A stretch of DNA of 61,924 nt. Origin: an uncultured Nitrososphaerales archaeon (GTDB taxonomy: Archaea > Thermoproteota > Nitrososphaeria > Conexivisphaerales > UBA164). This document shows, in pieces, positions 9,627 to 60,480 of the stretch. The stretch is from positions 1 through 61,924 of the forward strand of contig CAYFJA010000002.1 in the NCBI GenBank assembly GCA_964343315.1. Direction: 5' to 3'. Each line of letters begins with the position of its first letter. The first letter of the stretch is position 1. Made by a program: the position numbers and the translations under genes. A model generated the notes under the pieces. It was not told where the DNA came from, did no database searches, and saw nothing but the letters and a program-made list of their open reading frames with translations.

Positions 9627-11078
9627 TCACTTAAAGAACCTCTTTGTGTTTCCTAGGGTTTTATAATCTATGTCCTTTACGTTAACTAAGAACGGAAGGT
9701 AGTTGGCCACCTTACCTATAACCAAACATTTCCTAGGGGAGAGCGATCTAACTATATTCTTTATCGTGTCAGCATCTACCGTTGAAGCCTGTGAAATCAT
9801 TTCCAAGTCTTTTTCGTTTACGAAGTTAAAAAGAAAAATGTTGTCAGCCTGCCTGTACACTGTTGGATCGAGCGAATCCGGCTGGTTTGTGATAAAAGTA
9901 ATATAAATTCCAAAGTGCCTCATTCTAGTTATGGCATCTTCCCAGTAAGTTTGATCAAAGTAAAGGTGAGCTTCCTCTGCAAAAACAAAAACTGGGGGTA
10001 TTTCATTTTCCTCTAAGAGATCTATGAGCTTTGAAAGCATTATCTGGACCAAAATCCTCCTTGCTAAAGGCGAGATCTTAGCCATTTCTAAAAGGAAGGC
10101 TGCTCCCTTAGGCTTGCTGCTTATGTTACCCTTAATATCAAAGTTAACGTAATCAGAATTTGTGAAAAGCTTAGATGATAAGAGTGAATAATACCTAGAG
10201 ATCAAAGCCTCTTTAACCATTTCGTTGCTGTTATAATTCGTTATCTTCTGGTAGAGGTTTCTGAGAGATATGTCTGATTCTTCGCTCATGGCATCCCAAA
10301 TCTTTAAGAACTCCCTAACCGTTATTGCCGGTGTGTCTAGCGCGTGAGTTAAAATCTCCGTAAAAACCCTTTTCCCGATGTACTTCAGCGTAAAAACTAA
10401 GTTATTTCCTGGCTCAAGTATAAGCGTTCTATCGTAAACGTCAGAAAAATCTCCTTTCTTGTTGTAAATTATTCCATTGTATTCGTTATTCAGATCAAAA
10501 ACAAAAACGTACGCTCCGAGTTTAACCAGTTCCGTTAACAACAGCTTAGCTAAGTGAGACTTTCCGGATTCTTTTTTGCCGGTAATTATCGTTAGAGAGC
10601 CGTCCAAGTCTTCAGCCGCTATTACAGCTTTTTCGCCCGTCGAAGTGTAGCCAATCTCTATCGGGTAAGCCGGCGTTTTCTGAATGTATTTGCTAACTTC
10701 GCTGAGCCCAACCTTTCTTATGGAGCTAAAAACTCTGCTGGGAGGCCAAACTATTTCGTTAGTAAATCTGTTTTCTATTATGCTTCCTCTAATCTTGCAT
10801 TTCAGAAGCCTAGCGTCCTTTATCAGGATTAGAAGGGAACTTACGTTGTTTGGATCTATGTGCGTTATTTTTTCTGAAGAAAAAACTTCATCCCTAAGTA
10901 TTTCTTCATCTATCCCTGTAGGATCTAAGTAGCTTACTTCGTAAACTTGAGTTAAGAGCTTATTGCCGCTGGTTTCGTCCTCAATAATCAGGTATTCTCC
11001 TCTATCTACTTTCTCATTCGGAAGCGCTATTATTTTAATTTCGTCCCCTGACTTTGACAATATTCTCATGCTTTTCAC
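9627..11078 (-). CDS. herA: HerA-like (DUF87/FtsK-HerA superfamily) hexameric ATPase
   Basis: N-terminal HAS-barrel-like segment, Walker A ITGKKESGKSHL, Walker B VFVFAEEAH, ~480 aa. The GTG start overlaps the stop of the upstream NurA gene (GTGA); an ATG lies 9 nt downstream. Confidence 0.7.
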   Translation of the reverse strand: MKSMRILSKSGDEIKIIALPNEKVDRGEYLIIEDETSGNKLLTQVYEVSYLDPTGIDEEILRDEVFSSEKITHIDPNNVSSLLILIKDARLLKCKIRGSIIENRFTNEIVWPPSRVFSSIRKVGLSEVSKYIQKTPAYPIEIGYTSTGEKAVIAAEDLDGSLTIITGKKESGKSHLAKLLLTELVKLGAYVFVFDLNNEYNGIIYNKKGDFSDVYDRTLILEPGNNLVFTLKYIGKRVFTEILTHALDTPAITVREFLKIWDAMSEESDISLRNLYQKITNYNSNEMVKEALISRYYSLLSSKLFTNSDYVNFDIKGNISSKPKGAAFLLEMAKISPLARRILVQIMLSKLIDLLEENEIPPVFVFAEEAHLYFDQTYWEDAITRMRHFGIYITFITNQPDSLDPTVYRQADNIFLFNFVNEKDLEMISQASTVDADTIKNIVRSLSPRKCLVIGKVANYLPFLVNVKDIDYKTLGNTKRFFK

Positions 11079-12109
11079 CTCACGTAACCGAGGAGAAACT
11101 TCCTCATGTTTTCATCGTAAAGTATTTTTGAAGCATTTTGAGCAACCAAAGCCTTTATTCCCTGAACTTCGCTGGAGACAAAAAGAGAAAGCAAATGAGC
11201 TCCTATCAGGCTTTCTGGGTAACCTTTTACGAGCTTATCAGACTTTATAAGGCTTGAAAAGCATTCATCCGGATCCCCGTTATAGATGTCTGCCCTAAGA
11301 ACTATTGACCCTGGGTCCAGCTTAACCAAAAATTTTCTGCCGATTTCGTTTTTTGATATGTTGTTTATCAGTTCGGTTATCTCTAAGTACCTGAGCTTGT
11401 TATCGTAAAAAGAATTGTATAAAGACCTCAAGGCTTTTAAGCTGCTTGTCTTGCTTATTCCGATAAAGGTGACCCTATCCTTGTATTTCTCCATGATATA
11501 CCCTAAATCTAACCTCCCCAAATAAAACGGGGGCTCTTTGAGAGAGCCGTCAACTAAGGCTATACCGCTGCCTATTTCATTTATCAACATTTCAAAAAGC
11601 ATGTTTTCAATAACGTGCCTTGCGAACTTTAAAGCGAGCTGTTTATCTATTACAACGCTGTAACCCAGCCTTCCGCCTATTACGGCTTCGATCTTTTTTA
11701 TGTTGCTTATTCCTAAGTATATAGCTATAGGGCCAAACTTTTTTAGAGTGACTTCCCTATTTTTTATTATATAGGCCCCACCCTTAACTGCATAGATTCC
11801 TCCTTCTTCTGTCTCTGCTATTGATGTTGAACTGGAATCAACAGCAACTATATTCCTAACTGATCCTTTTTCGAGGTTTATTTCGTTAGCTAAAGCTTTA
11901 GTGGGCGTTTCCCAACCTTCTATAGGCCTGAATTCCCCAATAGAATCGTCAGTAAATATGATCTGCTTGCCCCTTATGTTTGAAATATCCAAAATTTCAT
12001 TGAATAAGCTATTGAATATAATTTCGTCATCTACATATTCGTAAAGGCTCCTCATATTATTAGAAAGGTTTATTTGTTTGGCCAACTTGATCAACAATAG
12101 GTTAAACAA
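11075..12109 (-). CDS. nurA: NurA-domain nuclease
   Basis: NurA acidic motifs VAVDSSS and ALVDGSL, and operon pairing with HerA. The true start is probably Met19 (MRSLYEYV, about 12055), because 12109 lies only 12 bp from the divergent gene. Confidence 0.65.
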   Translation of the reverse strand: MFNLLLIKLAKQINLSNNMRSLYEYVDDEIIFNSLFNEILDISNIRGKQIIFTDDSIGEFRPIEGWETPTKALANEINLEKGSVRNIVAVDSSSTSIAETEEGGIYAVKGGAYIIKNREVTLKKFGPIAIYLGISNIKKIEAVIGGRLGYSVVIDKQLALKFARHVIENMLFEMLINEIGSGIALVDGSLKEPPFYLGRLDLGYIMEKYKDRVTFIGISKTSSLKALRSLYNSFYDNKLRYLEITELINNISKNEIGRKFLVKLDPGSIVLRADIYNGDPDECFSSLIKSDKLVKGYPESLIGAHLLSLFVSSEVQGIKALVAQNASKILYDENMRKFLLGYVR

Positions 12110-55137: not shown

Positions 55138-56256
55138 GTGAAAGGGGTCTTTAAGGATAAGAGCAAATTATACCCTACTTATGTTCCTGACGAGCTTCCC
55201 CACAGAGAAGAGAAGCTGAGGGCTATGAAAGATAGCTTGGAGGAGAGCCTGAGCGGGAATTCTCTGATTATACTTCAGATTATAGGAGAGGTTGGAACAG
55301 GAAAAACGGTTAGCCTTCTGAAGCTAAGCAGAGATTACGGGGGAGAAAGGATTAAGTTCGCTTACTTAAACCCCAGACAGCACGGGACCTCTAGGGTTTT
55401 GCTGTACAGGCAGATATGCAGGTCTCTGGCGCCTGAGGCTTATTCTTCAAGCTACAGCCCAGAGGAGCTCCTTCAGGCCGCTGTGAGGGGCCTCACGAAG
55501 CAAAACGCTAAAGGTGTAATCATGTTTGACGACCTTGACTACTTTTTGGTTAGGTCCAAAGAGCCAGTTGTTTACAACTTAACTAGGCTTTACGAGATAT
55601 TCCCGCTAGAAAAGCTTCCCATAACTTTGGTTATATTTACAGCCAAGAGCCTAAAGTTCAGGGATTACCTTGAGAGGTCTGAGCTCAGCTCCCTCGGCAA
55701 CAGGGTTCTATTCTTTGAGAGGTACAGCAGGGAGCAGATATTTGACATACTTCAAAAGAGGGCTGAGGAAGCTTTCCTCCCGGGAAGGGTAGACGAAAAG
55801 GTTCTTGAGTTCATCTCAGAGATAACCGCTTCGCCTCCTATAAACGGGGACATAAGGTACGCTATAGACCTGCTTTTAAACTCGGGCTTAGCGTGCGAGG
55901 CTGAAGGCTGCTCTAAGATAACCGTAGACCACGTCAGGAAGGTGGTGAGCATTACTTCGCCTTATATAACTCAGGAGGACATAGCAAGCCTGGACGAGGG
56001 ACTCAAGAAGGCTCTCTTAGCTGTGGTTAGGGCGTTGAAAACGTCTCAGGAGCCTTACGTTTCTCTTGACAAAATATACACAACTTACTCTGAAATAAGC
56101 AAGGAAAAAGATGGGCTGAAGGATCTCGTGGAGAAGCTTCAGGAGCTTGATTCCCGCGGGATAATAGAAGTGAAGGGGCTCACTAAGATCGGGATTACTG
56201 GGGCGCCGCTTGAAAGCTTAGCAAGCTTTTTAGAGGCTTCTCTCCAAAACTCTTAA
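55138..56256 (+). CDS. Orc1/Cdc6 AAA+ protein (divergent, short paralog)
   Basis: LYPTYVPDELPHREEKL N-terminus, Walker A IGEVGTGKT, Walker B VIMFDDLD, sensor-2 GDIRYAIDLL, and a C-terminal winged-helix region with an atypical wing. GTG start. Confidence 0.85.
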   Translation: MKGVFKDKSKLYPTYVPDELPHREEKLRAMKDSLEESLSGNSLIILQIIGEVGTGKTVSLLKLSRDYGGERIKFAYLNPRQHGTSRVLLYRQICRSLAPEAYSSSYSPEELLQAAVRGLTKQNAKGVIMFDDLDYFLVRSKEPVVYNLTRLYEIFPLEKLPITLVIFTAKSLKFRDYLERSELSSLGNRVLFFERYSREQIFDILQKRAEEAFLPGRVDEKVLEFISEITASPPINGDIRYAIDLLLNSGLACEAEGCSKITVDHVRKVVSITSPYITQEDIASLDEGLKKALLAVVRALKTSQEPYVSLDKIYTTYSEISKEKDGLKDLVEKLQELDSRGIIEVKGLTKIGITGAPLESLASFLEASLQNS

Positions 56257-56286
56257 AACGCAACAGCACATTATTTATTATATAAT

Positions 56287-56565
56287 ATGATTATTGAAGA
56301 TGTTTTAGGCTCAAAGACAAAGCTTAAAGTCATTAAGGTTCTCTCTGAGTCTAGCGCTCCTCTTTCTCTGTATTACATTCAAAGAAAGACCGGGCTGAGG
56401 AGGTCCTCATTAAAGAGCGCCATAGAGGGGCTTTCCAAAGCTGGCTTGGTTAAGGAGGTTGAAGGGCTCAACGTCAAGAAGTACGAGATAAACTCAAACA
56501 GCCCTGAAGCGAAGAAGCTTATTTCTTGTCTGATCGAGCTAGGATACATAAACACTAGGCTCTAA
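56287..56565 (+). CDS. Small winged-helix DNA-binding protein
   Basis: 92 aa. KVIKVLSESSAPLSLYYIQRKTGLRRSSLKSAIEGLSKAGLVKEV is a typical HTH plus wing. It lies 30 nt downstream of orc1/cdc6, and its 3' end overlaps the convergent polymerase gene. Confidence 0.55.
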   Translation: MIIEDVLGSKTKLKVIKVLSESSAPLSLYYIQRKTGLRRSSLKSAIEGLSKAGLVKEVEGLNVKKYEINSNSPEAKKLISCLIELGYINTRL

Positions 56566-58347
56566 AGGCTCCTCAAGCATCGGCTTAAGGCCTAACGGAT
56601 GAAGCACCGTCTCTGCAGCAGAAAGCAGCATCAGCAAGTACTTTTTCCAGTCAACGTCTTCTTTCGCAAGCTCCGGCCCTCTCCTTCCGATAAAATACTT
56701 AGCCTTATCCCCGGCCCTCAGCCCAAGCTCCTCAGCTACTATTTTTTGGGCTACGTTTGTCTTGTAGCTTTCTGGGTCCTTGCCTACCCTCTTTTCTATC
56801 AAAAGCAGCTCCGGGTCCAGAGACCCTTCCCTCAAAGCTTTAGCGTACCTCCTAACTATTTGGGCCGCTTTAGAAGCTTTCTCCTTTGCTTCTTCTAAGC
56901 TTTCACTGAAGTATATTTCCTTAATCAGCTCCTCTTGCATAAGCTTTACTAGCTTTGGATAGTCGGACCTCCTGAGCTCTATCCCCCTAGCCTCAACCTC
57001 TCCATCATAAGTAACTCCAAAATACCTCTTTATGGCTACGATCCCTTCTAAGGACTTAGCCTTAACGAAGGCTATAGACTTAAAGTGCTTGTCAACAACT
57101 GCAGGTATTCCAGTTTTGCTGGATATCTTTTCTGCTAAGGCCTTGTAGTCTTCCAGCTTTGCCCCTTCTTTGTGCAGGAACAAGGAGTCCACGTCAGCGT
57201 AAATGAGTGTAAATCCTTCGTTTTCAGCGATCTCCTTTGCCTTAAGCAGGATCTTCCTCGAGCTTAGGTTTATTTCTTCAAAGGCGTAGTGGTTTCCGAA
57301 CCTGTTAAGGGCGCACCCAGATATCCCGTACTCGCTCACCAAAATTATCTTCAGCGAGTCTGACCTGGCCTTGTAAAGCTCAGCCTTTTCTTTTTCCCTT
57401 TCTTCCCTGTAAAGCTTCTTAAACGTCAACCTCCTGCTTATCCAGAAGTCGACGACTTCAGGAATGAGCCAGCCGTGCCCGGAGTAGCTTATCTTTTCCT
57501 TTCTTATTATGTTTGGGTACTCAGACTCAAAGTCTATTGCGGCTACGTTAAAGTAAACGCCCGGCTTTTCTGCAGGTATCGTGTACCCTCCCCTGTCCCT
57601 CTTTAAAAACTCATGAAGGCTTTCTGAAGGCTCTGAATAGTGAAGCTTCGGGACAGCGAAGCCCTGAGATATAAGCGTGAACGCGTTTCTTGAGTCTATG
57701 ACCTTGTTGCTGCTCCACCTAGCCGCCAAGCCGAGAGGAAGAAAAGCGAAGATGCTCCTCTCCTGAACGTAAGCAAGGCCCTGCTTCGAGCACTCAAACC
57801 ACTGGGCCCCGTTCATAGCTATCCTGCCCGCGCAGGAGCCCTGGAGCTCGTCTACAGGGTCATCGGACCTCTTTTTTACTTCTGAGCAGCTCTTTCCGCA
57901 GACGATATCTGCTTCGGGGTCCTGGCCAACGTAAAGGGGCATGGGCTCAGGGTCGTAGTCAAGCGGGATGGGCGAGAGGTCTTGAACGTACAGCTTCCTC
58001 CCGGGCTCAACCTTAAGCTCTGTGAAGAGGAACTTCTGAATGGGGAGCAGGTCGTCGTAGACTTCTGCCCTTCTGTCAGCCTTCAGCTTCTTAACGAGCC
58101 AGCCGTAAGACTCCCAGCTCGGCTCAACCAGGGCCATGTCCTTCTCTCCGCCCCCAACCAGCTTTCTCCTTACAACGCTTACCTTTGCTACCTCAGATAG
58201 GTCTTGAACTAGGGACTCATCCTTAAAGTCAACCAGTATGTAGGGCGAATAGCTGAACACCTTCCTGTAAAAAGTGCCCCCTTCGCTCAAGAGCCAGACG
58301 TAGGCTTTGCCATGCTTGTAGTAAGCGTCGAAGAGCCATCCCTTCAT
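56539..58347 (-). CDS. Family-B DNA polymerase lacking the 3'-5' exonuclease domain (PolB2/Dpo2-like)
   Basis: PolB N-terminus GWLFDAYYKHGKAYVWLL, motif A IDFESEYPNII (DxxSLYPSII), motif B KIILVSEYGISG (KxxxNSxYG) and motif C IYADVDSLF (YxDTDS). Only ~280 aa precede motif A and no DxE Exo-I motif was seen. The ATG overlaps the upstream TGA. Confidence 0.75.
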   Translation of the reverse strand: MKGWLFDAYYKHGKAYVWLLSEGGTFYRKVFSYSPYILVDFKDESLVQDLSEVAKVSVVRRKLVGGGEKDMALVEPSWESYGWLVKKLKADRRAEVYDDLLPIQKFLFTELKVEPGRKLYVQDLSPIPLDYDPEPMPLYVGQDPEADIVCGKSCSEVKKRSDDPVDELQGSCAGRIAMNGAQWFECSKQGLAYVQERSIFAFLPLGLAARWSSNKVIDSRNAFTLISQGFAVPKLHYSEPSESLHEFLKRDRGGYTIPAEKPGVYFNVAAIDFESEYPNIIRKEKISYSGHGWLIPEVVDFWISRRLTFKKLYREEREKEKAELYKARSDSLKIILVSEYGISGCALNRFGNHYAFEEINLSSRKILLKAKEIAENEGFTLIYADVDSLFLHKEGAKLEDYKALAEKISSKTGIPAVVDKHFKSIAFVKAKSLEGIVAIKRYFGVTYDGEVEARGIELRRSDYPKLVKLMQEELIKEIYFSESLEEAKEKASKAAQIVRRYAKALREGSLDPELLLIEKRVGKDPESYKTNVAQKIVAEELGLRAGDKAKYFIGRRGPELAKEDVDWKKYLLMLLSAAETVLHPLGLKPMLEEPLEPSVYVS

Positions 58348-59216
58348 TCCTTCTTTCTTTCTGCCTCCTTCTTCAGCTTCAAGACCTCAGAGTACACCTT
58401 TATGAGAGCCATGAAGACCATAGCGTCGTAAACGGTAGCAACGTCCAAGGCGCTCATTGAAGCTGTCTCAGAGCTCCAGAGCCTTTTCAGCTCCTCATAT
58501 GCTTCCCTATCATCCCCCCTGAGCAGAGGGAGCAGCTCTTCGTCCAGAGCCTTCAAGTACTCTTCAAACCTCTCCCTAAATGACCTCGTCAGCCTCCCCA
58601 TCCAGCCCACCTCAAAGGTCTTCTTTGAGCGAAAGGGCTTTAGGACCTCCACTTCAACGCCTCCTTGGGATCTCCTGAGGCTTATTATGTAGTTTGACAG
58701 GGACCTGACCAAGCTTGTTGACTCTGGCTCTCCTTCCCCCTTAGTTAAAGCTATGAGAGGGGCGCCGGAAGCCACAGAAGCTTTGAGCATAGCGTGGAAG
58801 GCTGAGTTTGTTTCTTCCGGGCTGCTTATGAAAGAGTCCAGGCCGTGGTAAACGTAAAGCCTGTAGCCTTCCTTAAAGTGCCTTCTAGCTTCCAGGAGCC
58901 TCTGGGGGCTGTGAACGGAAACTTCAGTTATGTTTTTAGCTATGCTTGAAAACTCGAGGCATTTGGACTTTGCTATAAACCCTATGAGGTCCTGGTCTAT
59001 TATCTTTCTCTCAGAGTAATAGTCCGTAGCGTTTACGTAAAGAACAGGGCCTGAGCTTGCGGCCTCAACGACGTAGAAGTACATGGCAAGCTCTGCGAGG
59101 TCACCGAACATAAGGTAAGAGCTTTCTCCTCTTAAGCCCCCTATGAGCTCGTCGAGAGGGCTGAAGCCCCTTAGCTCAGATCCCTCTTTGATTTCAGAAG
59201 CCTTTACGAAGCTCAA
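58344..59216 (-). CDS. RecA/RadA-fold paralog with a degenerate P-loop, plus a C-terminal helical domain
   Basis: GFSPLDELIGGLRGESSYLMFGDLAELAMYF parallels the RadA/KaiC entry (LDelLgGG...G.pGsGKT), but the Walker A is replaced by GDLAELAM. The TTG start overlaps the upstream TGA. Confidence 0.5.
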   Translation of the reverse strand: MSFVKASEIKEGSELRGFSPLDELIGGLRGESSYLMFGDLAELAMYFYVVEAASSGPVLYVNATDYYSERKIIDQDLIGFIAKSKCLEFSSIAKNITEVSVHSPQRLLEARRHFKEGYRLYVYHGLDSFISSPEETNSAFHAMLKASVASGAPLIALTKGEGEPESTSLVRSLSNYIISLRRSQGGVEVEVLKPFRSKKTFEVGWMGRLTRSFRERFEEYLKALDEELLPLLRGDDREAYEELKRLWSSETASMSALDVATVYDAMVFMALIKVYSEVLKLKKEAERKKE

Positions 59217-60106
59217 AGGACACCGGCCTCTCCTATAAAGAACTCAGCCTCAGCCTGGGGCAGAGATGGGCTGTCGACGAGCTTTGCGAACCTACGATCC
59301 CCTTTCTTATATAAGAAGACCCTGTGAGTCACTGAGTGCGCCAAGACGTTTCCCCCCGCAGGCCTCAGCCTTTCTAACGCGAACGGGTTTGGGCTTGAAG
59401 TTACCTGGTTGGTTATAACAACGGCTGAGCCGTAAGCCTCAGAGATCTCCTTGAGCTTGAAAAGAAGAAGCCCGAGCCTCTGCTGCCTCTCCTGAAGGCT
59501 TTCTCTTCCAAGAAACTCAGCCCTGAAAGGGCTAACTATGCTGTCAATAACTATCAGCCTTACGTTTTCCCTGCTCAGTAGATGCGGCAGCTGAAGCACG
59601 CTCTCTTCAAGGCTTTGATATCCTACAGCCCTGCTGTAAAATATGTTGTCAAGAACTTCGCTTCTGTCCAGGCCCCTTGCCGAAGCTATCTCAGAGACCC
59701 TCTCAGCCCTGAAGGTTCCTTCGGAGTCTATGTAAGCAACCTTTCCCCCAAACCCTCCTTCCTCAGCCTTAAGCTGGCAGAGAACGCTGAGCGTTACGCA
59801 GACCTGCGTCTTGCCTGTTGAAGCTTCTCCGTAGAACTCTGTTATGGATCCCTGCTCAACTCCTCCTCCTAGGACCTTATCAAGCCCCCTGCTCCCGGTG
59901 CTGCACCTTAAGGCTTTTGACTGAAGCCTGTAGACTTCAGATGCCTGGACAAATCCTGAGCTTGAAAGCTCTCTGCTGAGGAGGAAGGTTTGGCTTGGCT
60001 TAACGCCGAGGCCCAAAGGGGCAGGGCTGCTCAGAAGGGTCTGCCCCAACAGCCTCCTCCCAGCCGATCCCATGAGATGCTTTTTGCAAGAATAATATTT
60101 AAGCAA
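59213..60106 (-). CDS. RadA/Rad51-type recombinase core without the N-terminal HhH domain
   Basis: STGSRGLDKVLGGGVEQGSITEFYGEASTGKTQVC (Walker A), KVAYIDSEGTFRAERV, LIVIDSIVSPFRAEFLGRESLQERQQRL, ITNQV and PAGGNVLAHSVTHRV. The likely true start is Met12 at 60073, about 24 nt downstream of an AT-rich box. Confidence 0.8.
   Translation of the reverse strand: MLKYYSCKKHLMGSAGRRLLGQTLLSSPAPLGLGVKPSQTFLLSRELSSSGFVQASEVYRLQSKALRCSTGSRGLDKVLGGGVEQGSITEFYGEASTGKTQVCVTLSVLCQLKAEEGGFGGKVAYIDSEGTFRAERVSEIASARGLDRSEVLDNIFYSRAVGYQSLEESVLQLPHLLSRENVRLIVIDSIVSPFRAEFLGRESLQERQQRLGLLLFKLKEISEAYGSAVVITNQVTSSPNPFALERLRPAGGNVLAHSVTHRVFLYKKGDRRFAKLVDSPSLPQAEAEFFIGEAGVL
60091..60103. promoter_or_regulatory. Shared AT-rich (TATA-like) box between the divergent radA-like and folB-like genes
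   Basis: AATAATATTTAAG is the only AT-rich element between ATG 60073 (minus) and ATG 60136 (plus). The plus-side spacer is a purine-rich, SD-like GGAGAGGGGGAGGGG. Confidence 0.3.
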
Positions 60107-60135
60107 AGGAGGACAAGAAAGGAGAGGGGGAGGGG

Positions 60136-60480
60136 ATGCCTTCTAAAGTTGGAGTAAAAGGGCTGAAGCTCAAGTGCAGGGTTGGGGTTGATCCTGGGGA
60201 GGAGCTGTTTGATAGGACCATTTTCGCTGATATAATTGTTGAGCTTGCGGATGAGTACAAAGGAGGCTTAGGGTCTACCGTCAGCTACAGCGAACTAGCT
60301 AAGAAGGTTAGAGAAAGGGTTGAAGGGAAGAGGTTTGAGCTTATAGAGGACGTAGCCAGGGAGATAGCTGGAGCCATAAAGGAGTTCAGGAACGTAAAGT
60401 CCTTTAAAATAAAGGTTGTGAAGCCCTACGTGCCTGAAGGAGCGTCGCGCGCTTTCTTCGTATACGAGGAGGTTTGCTGA
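60136..60480 (+). CDS. Dihydroneopterin aldolase-like T-fold protein (FolB/MptD-like)
   Basis: GLKLKCRVGVDPGEE...STVSYSELAKKV...FELIEDVAREIA...IKVVKPYVP follows the FolB pattern (G.hGv..E, tvdY, LiE.lA, v.v.Kp.ap). Confidence 0.55.
   Translation: MPSKVGVKGLKLKCRVGVDPGEELFDRTIFADIIVELADEYKGGLGSTVSYSELAKKVRERVEGKRFELIEDVAREIAGAIKEFRNVKSFKIKVVKPYVPEGASRAFFVYEEVC

Follow-up and report, generated by a model that had tools for sequence, protein, structure and literature searches.

A probable PolB2 mutasome operon of Conexivisphaerales with a RadA recombinase gene as its first cistron

Why should a gene for an intact RadA-type recombinase stand at the head of an operon for a specialised DNA polymerase? 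The question is raised by a 61,924-nucleotide (nt) stretch of DNA from an uncultured Nitrososphaerales archaeon (Conexivisphaerales in GTDB; assembly GCA_964343315.1, contig CAYFJA010000002.1, positions 1 to 61,924), which is called the window below. Three minus-strand open reading frames (ORFs) are chained near its end, listed at 59213-60106 (gene 1), 58344-59216 (gene 2) and 56539-58347 (gene 3). A preliminary description, made from the letters alone, had read them as a RadA-type recombinase, a RecA-fold paralog without P-loop and an exonuclease-less family-B polymerase, and it knew of no described module of this kind. According to our analysis, the locus is most probably the Conexivisphaerales form of the PolB2 translesion-synthesis (mutasome) operon, with a RadA gene as first cistron.

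Judged by homology and gene order, genes 2 and 3 are the already described PolB2 mutasome operon. Makarova, Krupovic and Koonin (2014; PMC4104785) predicted operons of PolB2, an inactivated RadA and a helical protein of about 90 amino acids (aa; arCOG07300), often by an Orc-family gene. Timinskas, Timinskas and Venclovas (2025; PMC11791011) named iRadA and PPB2 and modelled a PolB2-iRadA-PPB2(3) mutasome. They also noted that PPB2 has a conserved MGRT arm at its N-terminus, reported fusions of iRadA and PPB2 in which an internal Shine-Dalgarno (SD) sequence occurs, and found that PolB2s near the root in TACK archaea (Thaumarchaeota, Aigarchaeota, Crenarchaeota and Korarchaeota) have kept DxD together with a larger part of the exonuclease domain. 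The window shares the iRadA-PPB2-PolB2 order on one strand with orc1/cdc6 next door. Its gene 2 is likewise an ATPase-dead RadA fold without N-terminal domain (NTD), fused to PPB2 with an internal SD; its PPB2 is a three-helix protein of about 90 aa with an MGRT-type arm, and its PolB2 has no active exonuclease and keeps DxD as in TACK archaea. However, it differs from the described operons by an ATPase-intact RadA as first, translationally coupled cistron, by a PolB2 whose exonuclease core is deleted and carries a Cys4 cluster instead of being merely inactivated, and by an iRadA that retains an FxxA-like N-terminal tail. An ATPase-intact RadA in a PolB2 operon is mentioned in neither PMC4104785 nor PMC11791011, and Rad51 is absent from the 20 commonest neighbour domains in Table S1 of the latter. 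Thus, the claim that no such module had been described fails for genes 2 and 3 and stands for the intact RadA as first gene, while the operon coupling and the damage-tolerance role that had been suggested hold up for what now reads as a PolB2/iRadA/PPB2 operon. The recurrent RadA linkage, the fast-evolving RadA without helix-hairpin-helix (HhH) domain and the exonuclease-deleted Cys4 PolB2 look new.

The identity of gene 2 came from its family and its fold. Pfam and NCBIfam scans of gene 2 alone gave no family match, and a profile of seven close homologs returned only noise against PDB sequences; these seven clusters were all the close homologs that 5.8 billion proteins yielded. When 1.84 billion cluster representatives were searched with a profile, 98 clusters came up, of two kinds: proteins of 320-370 aa with a full-length match, and proteins of about 90 aa that match residues 206-287 only. 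The Pfam Rad51 family is matched by 23 of 30 longer relatives. In hhalign, the family profile is aligned to RadA with 99.8% probability (E 6e-28), in which GDL---AELAM opposes GEASTGKTQ and VYHG, the replacement of Walker B, opposes VIDS, with the Walker B aspartate lost. The RecA-fold entry LDELIGGL is present, while the P-loop pattern G....GK[ST] occurs in no member of the family. In the AlphaFold2 model (predicted local distance difference test score, pLDDT, 79.7), the RecA-like core exceeds 90 and residues 1-11 form a disordered tail, and the top Foldseek matches are Dmc1, RAD51 and RadA (probability 1.00). The RecA-fold paralog with an inactivated P-loop position that had been proposed from LDELIGGL and GDLAELAM is thus supported by profile and structure searches alike, but the preliminary description had missed that the last 85 residues are a PPB2 fusion.

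Three lines of evidence support this PPB2 call: the domain is homologous to stand-alone proteins that follow the published gene order, it has an MGRT-like motif, and it is modelled as three helices. Stand-alone proteins of the gene 2 family (84-100 aa) begin exactly at Met206 (MGR(L)T), MGRLT from residue 206 onward is invariant in the window's clade, and C-terminal helices are modelled at residues 213-231, 235-251 and 265-289 (AlphaFold2). In related genomes, iRadA (about 237 aa) and PPB2 (about 100 aa) are separate genes between RadA and PolB2. A candidate ribosome-binding site lies before the internal ATG of gene 2 (Table 1), and GGGTGG is found at its position in three related loci (L001, L004 and L005). 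A free 85-aa PPB2 starting with MGRLT is probably also made from this internal SD and ATG.

At the other end of gene 2, the members of this iRadA subfamily have a conserved [FIM]-x-[RK]-A-S motif, located where RadA has its polymerisation motif. Structural neighbours that rank high for the gene 2 model include chains of RAD51 paralog complexes (PDB 9svx, 9q29). RAD51 paralogs and euryarchaeal RadB, like gene 2, are RecA-fold proteins with reduced or no catalysis, and they act on or with the recombinase filament. Gene 2 differs from them in having no sequence-level orthology, in its fusion to PPB2 and in its tie to a polymerase.

Gene 3 matches Pfam DNA_pol_B in the palm/thumb region only and has no match to PF03104. 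Compared with relatives of 690-720 aa, about 100 alignment columns are deleted, which comprise the Exo I region and the helix after Exo II, so the earlier reading as an exonuclease-less PolB2-like polymerase is correct; the PolB2s of its short, Conexivisphaerales clade have 600-622 aa. Among 50 homologs, D272, K333, Y340, G341 and D387 are invariant, and D385 is aspartate in 43 of 50. The AlphaFold2 model (pLDDT 91.6) has no exonuclease fold at residues 121-187, and compared with KOD, 9N and E. coli Pol II its template modelling (TM) score is 0.74 over the query and 0.60 over the target. Between motifs B and C, gene 3 is closely similar to a Culexarchaeota PolB2 of the DVD type in the PMC11791011 data set, and every gene 3 homolog examined in context sits downstream of iRadA/PPB2. 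Gene 3 is probably a PolB2 that can polymerise but not proofread. At the deletion scar, four cysteines (CxxxC...C...C) are kept in 11-12 of 12 short PolB2s and are together absent from 38 longer relatives. Their region is modelled with a pLDDT of about 95 and almost no regular secondary structure, and it may be a zinc knuckle that holds the scar together.

Some further observations concern PolB2 in other genomes. Many relatives of 690-720 aa end with an L-x-x-W-[LIM]-like sequence (LEGWL, LERWL, LDDWL) resembling archaeal PCNA-binding motifs; the C-terminus of gene 3, LEPSVYVS, is unconvincing in this respect, and no claim is made for it. In L009 (GCA_023270075.1; 5451-7195), three ORFs of 97, 223 and 237-286 aa stand in place of one PolB2 gene, either because of frameshifts in an assembly of low quality or because the gene is truly a pseudogene. 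PolB2 homologs of 805-898 aa with the intein domain PF14890 were also found (L013, 7048-9744; P0259, P0284, P0300).

Table 1. Coordinates of the features discussed in the text (window numbering unless a locus is named)
Feature	Position	Strand	Remark
Gene 1, RadA-type recombinase, 286 aa	59213-60073	-	ATPase core and FxxA intact; no HhH NTD
Gene 1 FxxA polymerisation motif GFVQA	59942-59956	-	About 39 residues precede it from ATG 60073
Gene 1 Walker A GEASTGKT	59807-59830	-	
Gene 1 Walker B	59540-59560	-	
Gene 1 L1 loop	59480-59524	-	
Gene 1 L2 loop	59333-59410	-	
Gene 1/gene 2 overlap TTGA	59213-59216	-	Gene 1 stop TGA and gene 2 start TTG
Gene 2, iRadA::PPB2 fusion, 290 aa	58344-59216	-	ATPase-dead RadA fold at residues 1 to about 200, PPB2 at 206-290
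Gene 2 N-terminal FVKA motif	59199-59210	-	
Gene 2 GDLAELAM in P-loop position	59082-59105	-	
Gene 2 candidate internal ribosome-binding site GAGGTG and ATG	58608-58613; 58599-58601	-	GAGGTG six nt before ATG
Gene 2/gene 3 overlap ATGA	58344-58347	-	Gene 2 stop and gene 3 start
Gene 3, PolB2, 602 aa	56539-58347	-	Polymerase motifs intact; exonuclease core deleted
Gene 3 motif A IDFESEYPNII	57505-57537	-	
Gene 3 motif B KIILVSEYG	57325-57351	-	
Gene 3 motif C YADVDS (DVD)	57184-57201	-	
Gene 3 cysteines C150, C154, C172, C186	57790-57900	-	At exonuclease deletion scar
TATA box TTAAATAT	60095-60102	-	21 nt upstream of gene 1 ATG; candidate promoter
C-rich box CCCCTCCCCCTCTCC	60121-60135	-	About 18 nt upstream of TATA box; abuts divergent folB start codon
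Winged helix-turn-helix protein, 92 aa	56287-56565	+	Convergent with gene 3, 27-nt overlap at its 3' end; HTH_IclR/TrmB-like matches
Orc1/Cdc6-family AAA+ protein, 372 aa	55138-56256	+	Typical PolB2-operon neighbour
Full-length RadA with degenerate hairpin, L041	2960-3940		
Full-length RadA with degenerate hairpin, L042	3079-4041		

The three genes are joined as the preliminary description had stated, with the letters GTC CTT TGA / TTG AGC TTC at the junction of genes 1 and 2 and GAA TGA / ATG AAG GGA at that of genes 2 and 3. Overlaps of 4 nt are the commonest overlap type in prokaryotic operons. L001-L009 share the gene order and the overlaps. Since ATGA is found at both junctions in eight related loci, the stop/start coupling is conserved.

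To place the start of gene 1, we compared the upstream regions. The listed TTG start (60106) is only 30 nt from the start codon of the divergent folB gene, which begins at 60136 on the other strand, and it would place the TATA box inside gene 1; ATG 60073 is therefore preferred and is almost certainly the real start of a 286-aa protein. The sequence TTAAATAT is a candidate archaeal promoter element, and a TATA box lies 21-25 nt before the ATG in the window, L001, L004, L005 and L009, with the same letters except for TTATATCC in L009. This spacing implies a leaderless or near-leaderless gene 1 transcript. In the alignment of these five upstream regions, CCCCTC.CC is invariant in the C-rich box, a candidate operator or element proximal to the transcription factor B recognition element of the operon promoter. 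The complement of the box, GGAGAGGGGGAGGGG, directly precedes the folB ATG in the window and could double as the folB ribosome-binding site; in the relatives, more than 100 nt separate the two.

By its family scores, gene 1 belongs to RadA and not to RadB. It reaches 273.5 bits against the NCBIfam RadA equivalog NF003301 (curated cut-off 259), and it stays far below the curated RadB cut-offs of TIGR02237/NF006861 (119.5 vs 172.4 and 88.4 vs 278 bits). P. furiosus Rad51/RadA (1pzn) is matched with an E value of 1e-62, the core being about 50% identical. The located motifs and this score agree with the earlier statement that gene 1 holds the RadA/Rad51 core motifs and an intact Walker A. The catalytic residues of gene 1 are invariant across its clade, which comprises nine clusters of orthologs with 286-307 aa that carry the NCBI names Conexivisphaerales or Nitrososphaeria. 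With canonical archaeal RadA (NF003301/TIGR02236; PDB 1pzn, 2bke), gene 1 shares Walker A and B, the L1 and L2 loops, FxxA and about half of the residues of the core, but it differs by the lack of the HhH double-stranded-DNA-binding NTD, by fast evolution and by its place inside a polymerase operon.

The absence of the HhH domain, which had been proposed before, is indicated by the NF003301 alignment, which covers profile positions 65-313 of 316 and begins only at position 65. No match to PF14520 (HhH) was obtained in the nine clade members, while it is present in most other RadAs, and the N-terminal 42-61 residues of the clade RadAs are unalignable, without helix-hairpin-helix or G-h-G hairpin. 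A hidden HhH domain or a mis-called start is ruled out by the conserved TATA box and the divergent folB, whose position leaves no room upstream. The preliminary description had counted about 60 residues before the TGS...LD entry; ATG 60073 leaves about 39 before FxxA.

The full-length operon-linked RadAs of Conexivisphaerales and their relatives (L041, L042, L017, L019, L021) have a degenerate first hairpin, with GIAERA, GIEERI, GVEAGA and GMEERT vs the usual G-[VI]-G-P-x-T. In the other Conexivisphaerales full-length RadAs, this hairpin reads VDGIAERAEEKL or VDGIEERIEHRL. Because other Conexivisphaerales RadAs are already degenerate there, the loss of the HhH domain looks progressive, and the window's clade may represent the last stage of a slow erosion.

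The linkage of RadA to the mutasome genes is not peculiar to this genome, and the trio recurs in several deep lineages. A full-length, Walker-A-positive RadA stands directly upstream of iRadA(-PPB2)-PolB2 in L010/L011, in two further Conexivisphaerales metagenome-assembled genomes (L041 and L042) and in the deep-branching type of L044-L047. Among operons from GTDB species representatives, 11 of 27 contain an intact radA upstream, including all Caldarchaeales loci found; this proportion is indicative only, because the scan used a narrow iRadA pattern that is biased to one iRadA subfamily and missed the window's own clade. The pattern came from a narrower alignment, as one of 32 sequences proved too diverse. 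The flanking genes differ between loci, so the RadA adjacency itself is conserved. The operon is without radA in Methanosuratincola and several Nitrososphaerota lineages. In L012 (3383-4775), the gene after a full-length RadA encodes a lone 88-aa PPB2-like protein (DUF8156), and neither iRadA nor PolB2 is found in the vicinity; this is either an operon remnant or a RadA-PPB2 pairing in its own right.

From these features, a working scheme may be drawn. One leaderless transcript would begin about 21 nt downstream of the TATA box, and its three cistrons would be translated in a coupled manner through the TTGA and ATGA overlaps, giving a 286-aa RadA, a 290-aa iRadA::PPB2, a 602-aa PolB2 and probably also the free 85-aa PPB2. 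Given their homology to the components of the modelled Sulfolobus complex, PolB2, iRadA and a trimer of PPB2 would assemble as a mutasome that extends primers across or past lesions. The composition and action of the PolB2 mutasome are known only from Sulfolobus genetics and in-silico models.

What RadA would add to this is suggested tentatively. RadA filaments on single-stranded DNA at gaps, stalled forks or D-loops might be the platform or substrate of the mutasome, and the flexible F-x-x-A tail of iRadA might plug into the RadA core at the filament end, by which PolB2 would be brought to RadA-coated gaps or D-loops. In the published mutasome model, a PolB2 loop fills the pocket of iRadA (PMC11791011), so the iRadA tail would be free to bind the RadA pocket. 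D-loops made by RadA can serve archaeal family-B polymerases as substrates for extension in vitro (PMC7407445). Such docking would resemble the capping of RAD51 filaments by RAD51 paralogs or the activation of Pol V by RecA.

The comparison with the E. coli Pol V mutasome (UmuD'2C-RecA-ATP), drawn in PMC11791011, is a functional analogy only, in which a lesion-bypass polymerase is combined with a RecA-family subunit through a filament-type interface and with a small oligomeric subunit that inserts an N-terminal arm. However, Pol V is of the Y family and takes active RecA from the tip of the RecA* filament, whereas the built-in RecA-family subunit of the window appears dead and the active recombinase would come from a separate gene of the same operon. 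Further, the NTD-less RadA might be a dedicated fourth mutasome component that forms short filaments on the single-stranded DNA of damaged templates; the iRadA tail would cap their end and so load PolB2 at the 3' terminus. We regard this as unlikely; if true, archaea would have a B-family equivalent of Pol V activated by RecA*, perhaps in an organism in which the sole RadA lacks HhH.

Several results weigh against an operon in which RadA and the mutasome work together. About 60% of the related operons are without radA, and L043, from a sister clade with short PolB2, has lost it, so RadA is not an obligate part of the operon. The FxxA-like tail of iRadA showed no correlation with an upstream radA and is equally kept in operons without adjacent radA, and hence the motif does not track the linkage. 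AlphaFold-Multimer gave a poor result for S. islandicus PolB2 with active RadA (0.28; PMC11791011); the two genes are unlinked there, and the partner in that test was PolB2, not iRadA. As for the assignment of the components, PF26485 (DUF8156) was not returned by the Pfam scan of gene 2, though a precomputed record of this family exists for gene 2 homologs. Gene 3 is very distant in sequence from Sulfolobales Dpo2, with 198.8 bits vs the cut-off of 516 of the NCBIfam equivalog NF004416, and it keeps both aspartates of motif C, the first of which is replaced in Sulfolobales Dpo2 (IID/IVD). Also, the adjacency could reflect shared damage regulation only.

The last point leads to the alternative that survives best, namely that gene 1 is the ordinary and only RadA of its lineage, which adjoins the mutasome genes by ancestry and shares damage-inducible regulation with them without mechanistic link. 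We hold this to be plausible, though we lean against it. In a neighbour-joining tree, the operon-linked RadAs group by organismal lineage, with no single paralog clade, and the RadAs of ammonia oxidisers nest among them; between orders they are 45-57% identical, like ordinary RadAs. Gene 1 is the positional ortholog of the full-length Conexivisphaerales RadAs, with FolE2 or FolB upstream and iRadA downstream, and the linked RadA of Caldarchaeales is very conserved (83-92%). Among 5.8 billion proteins no closer full-length RadA was found, as the best match of gene 1 after the NTD-less clade (57-62%) is P0017 (50%), itself operon-linked. The poor PolB2-RadA model mentioned above points the same way. 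On the other hand, the stop/start overlap with iRadA is tighter than co-regulation needs, and the adjacency is kept in at least four deep lineages with differing flanks. In addition, the RadA of the window's clade has lost its HhH domain and evolves no slower than the accessory genes, which is unusual for a sole housekeeping recombinase.

The rates can be read from pairwise identities. In other lineages, the identity among linked RadAs clearly exceeds that of the partners iRadA/PolB2 (86 vs 51/60%, 92 vs 71/77% and 76 vs 62/63%), while in the window's clade RadA diverges about as much as the partners or more (67 vs 77/75% and 62 vs 51/63%). The identity ratio of RadA to PolB2 is thus 0.9-1.0 in the window's clade vs 1.2-1.45 in other lineages. 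Within this clade, RadA is 62-67%, PolB2 63-75% and iRadA 51-77% identical, and CDC48, 4 kb away, is 88-95% identical.

These ratios fit the idea of a specialised second RadA, serving as a subunit of the mutasome or of a recombination-synthesis machine, with a canonical HhH-containing RadA elsewhere in the genome. The clade-wide replacement of HhH by 42-61 unalignable residues is in favour as well, and a copy elsewhere could exist, given that the window is 61.9 kb of the genome. We nevertheless consider this rather doubtful. No candidate for a second copy was found, either within the 61.9-kb window or in the protein search, where the next match is the operon-linked P0017; the stand-alone RadA P0027 (L048) was considered and rejected, as it comes from an unrelated organism whose M24 peptidase is only 35% identical to that of the window. 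Moreover, gene 1 passes the NF003301 cut-off and keeps all catalytic and DNA-binding loops.

That the operon is decaying, with a domain-lost RadA, a dead paralog and a deleted polymerase as relics on the way to pseudogenes, would agree with the domain losses in two of three genes, the split PolB2 of L009 and the remnant-like L012 with only RadA and an orphan PPB2, but it is highly improbable, as the three ORFs are intact, constant in length and 50-63% identical over at least eight clusters from different samples, neither RadA nor PolB2 varies in its catalytic residues, conservation extends to the overlaps, promoter and internal SD, and the scar has gained four conserved cysteines modelled with high confidence.

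The significance of the locus depends on which reading holds. The repeated tight linkage in Conexivisphaerales, Caldarchaeales and other deep Nitrososphaerota-related lineages suggests that recombinase and mutasome cooperate, like RecA and Pol V, and it names concrete proteins with which such cooperation may be tested. If the linkage is co-regulation only, the locus is an ordinary though compact member of a known operon family. In either case, the window's clade offers a natural experiment, in which an HhH-less RadA is combined with a minimal Cys4 PolB2, useful for probing what the lost domains do.

The preliminary account had left out two adjoining genes, which encode an Orc1/Cdc6-family protein and a small winged helix-turn-helix (wHTH) protein. 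Orthologs of Orc1/Cdc6 (36-57% identical) stand beside the operon in L001-L008, L043 and L044, and the wHTH orthologs (90-96 aa) are always paired with the Orc1/Cdc6 gene, in three layouts: the pair converges with the operon in the window and L001-L008, diverges from it in L043, and lies upstream of it on the same strand in L044-L047, where two DUF72 genes accompany the pair. For example, the pair occupies 55138-56565 in the window, 2498-3923 in L043 and 8377-9904 in L044. Since it stays by the operon in three orientations, a two-component regulator is suggested, likely a damage-responsive regulator of the operon. In published data, orc1/cdc6 and DUF72 are enriched around polB2 (PMC11791011), and in S. 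islandicus the induction of dpo2 depends on Orc1-2, the damage-response regulator (PMC6061795). ANTTTC, the motif of Orc1-2 in Sulfolobales (PMC6061795), is not conserved in the aligned upstream regions of the operon.

As noted before, the block is richer in guanine and cytosine (GC) than the first 20 kb of the window: the GC content of genes 1-3 is 0.50-0.535, compared with 0.385-0.394. However, the immediate neighbour genes have 0.47-0.495 and the AT-richer first 20 kb is ordinary housekeeping sequence, so the block is part of a gradient and no island. Horizontal transfer or a GC island was rejected, as the neighbours are similar in GC and in GC at third codon positions and the synteny with CDC48 and cytochrome bd is conserved. 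Over the window (1-61924), GC climbs steadily, the value being 0.385 for the first 10 kb and 0.483 for 50-60 kb, and the parts checked are all housekeeping. Elsewhere in the window, at 9627-12109, a weakly HerA/CedD-like ATPase (483 aa, DUF87) has a 4-nt overlap with a 344-aa protein without family match, and the two may form a HerA-NurA-type or DNA-translocation pair.

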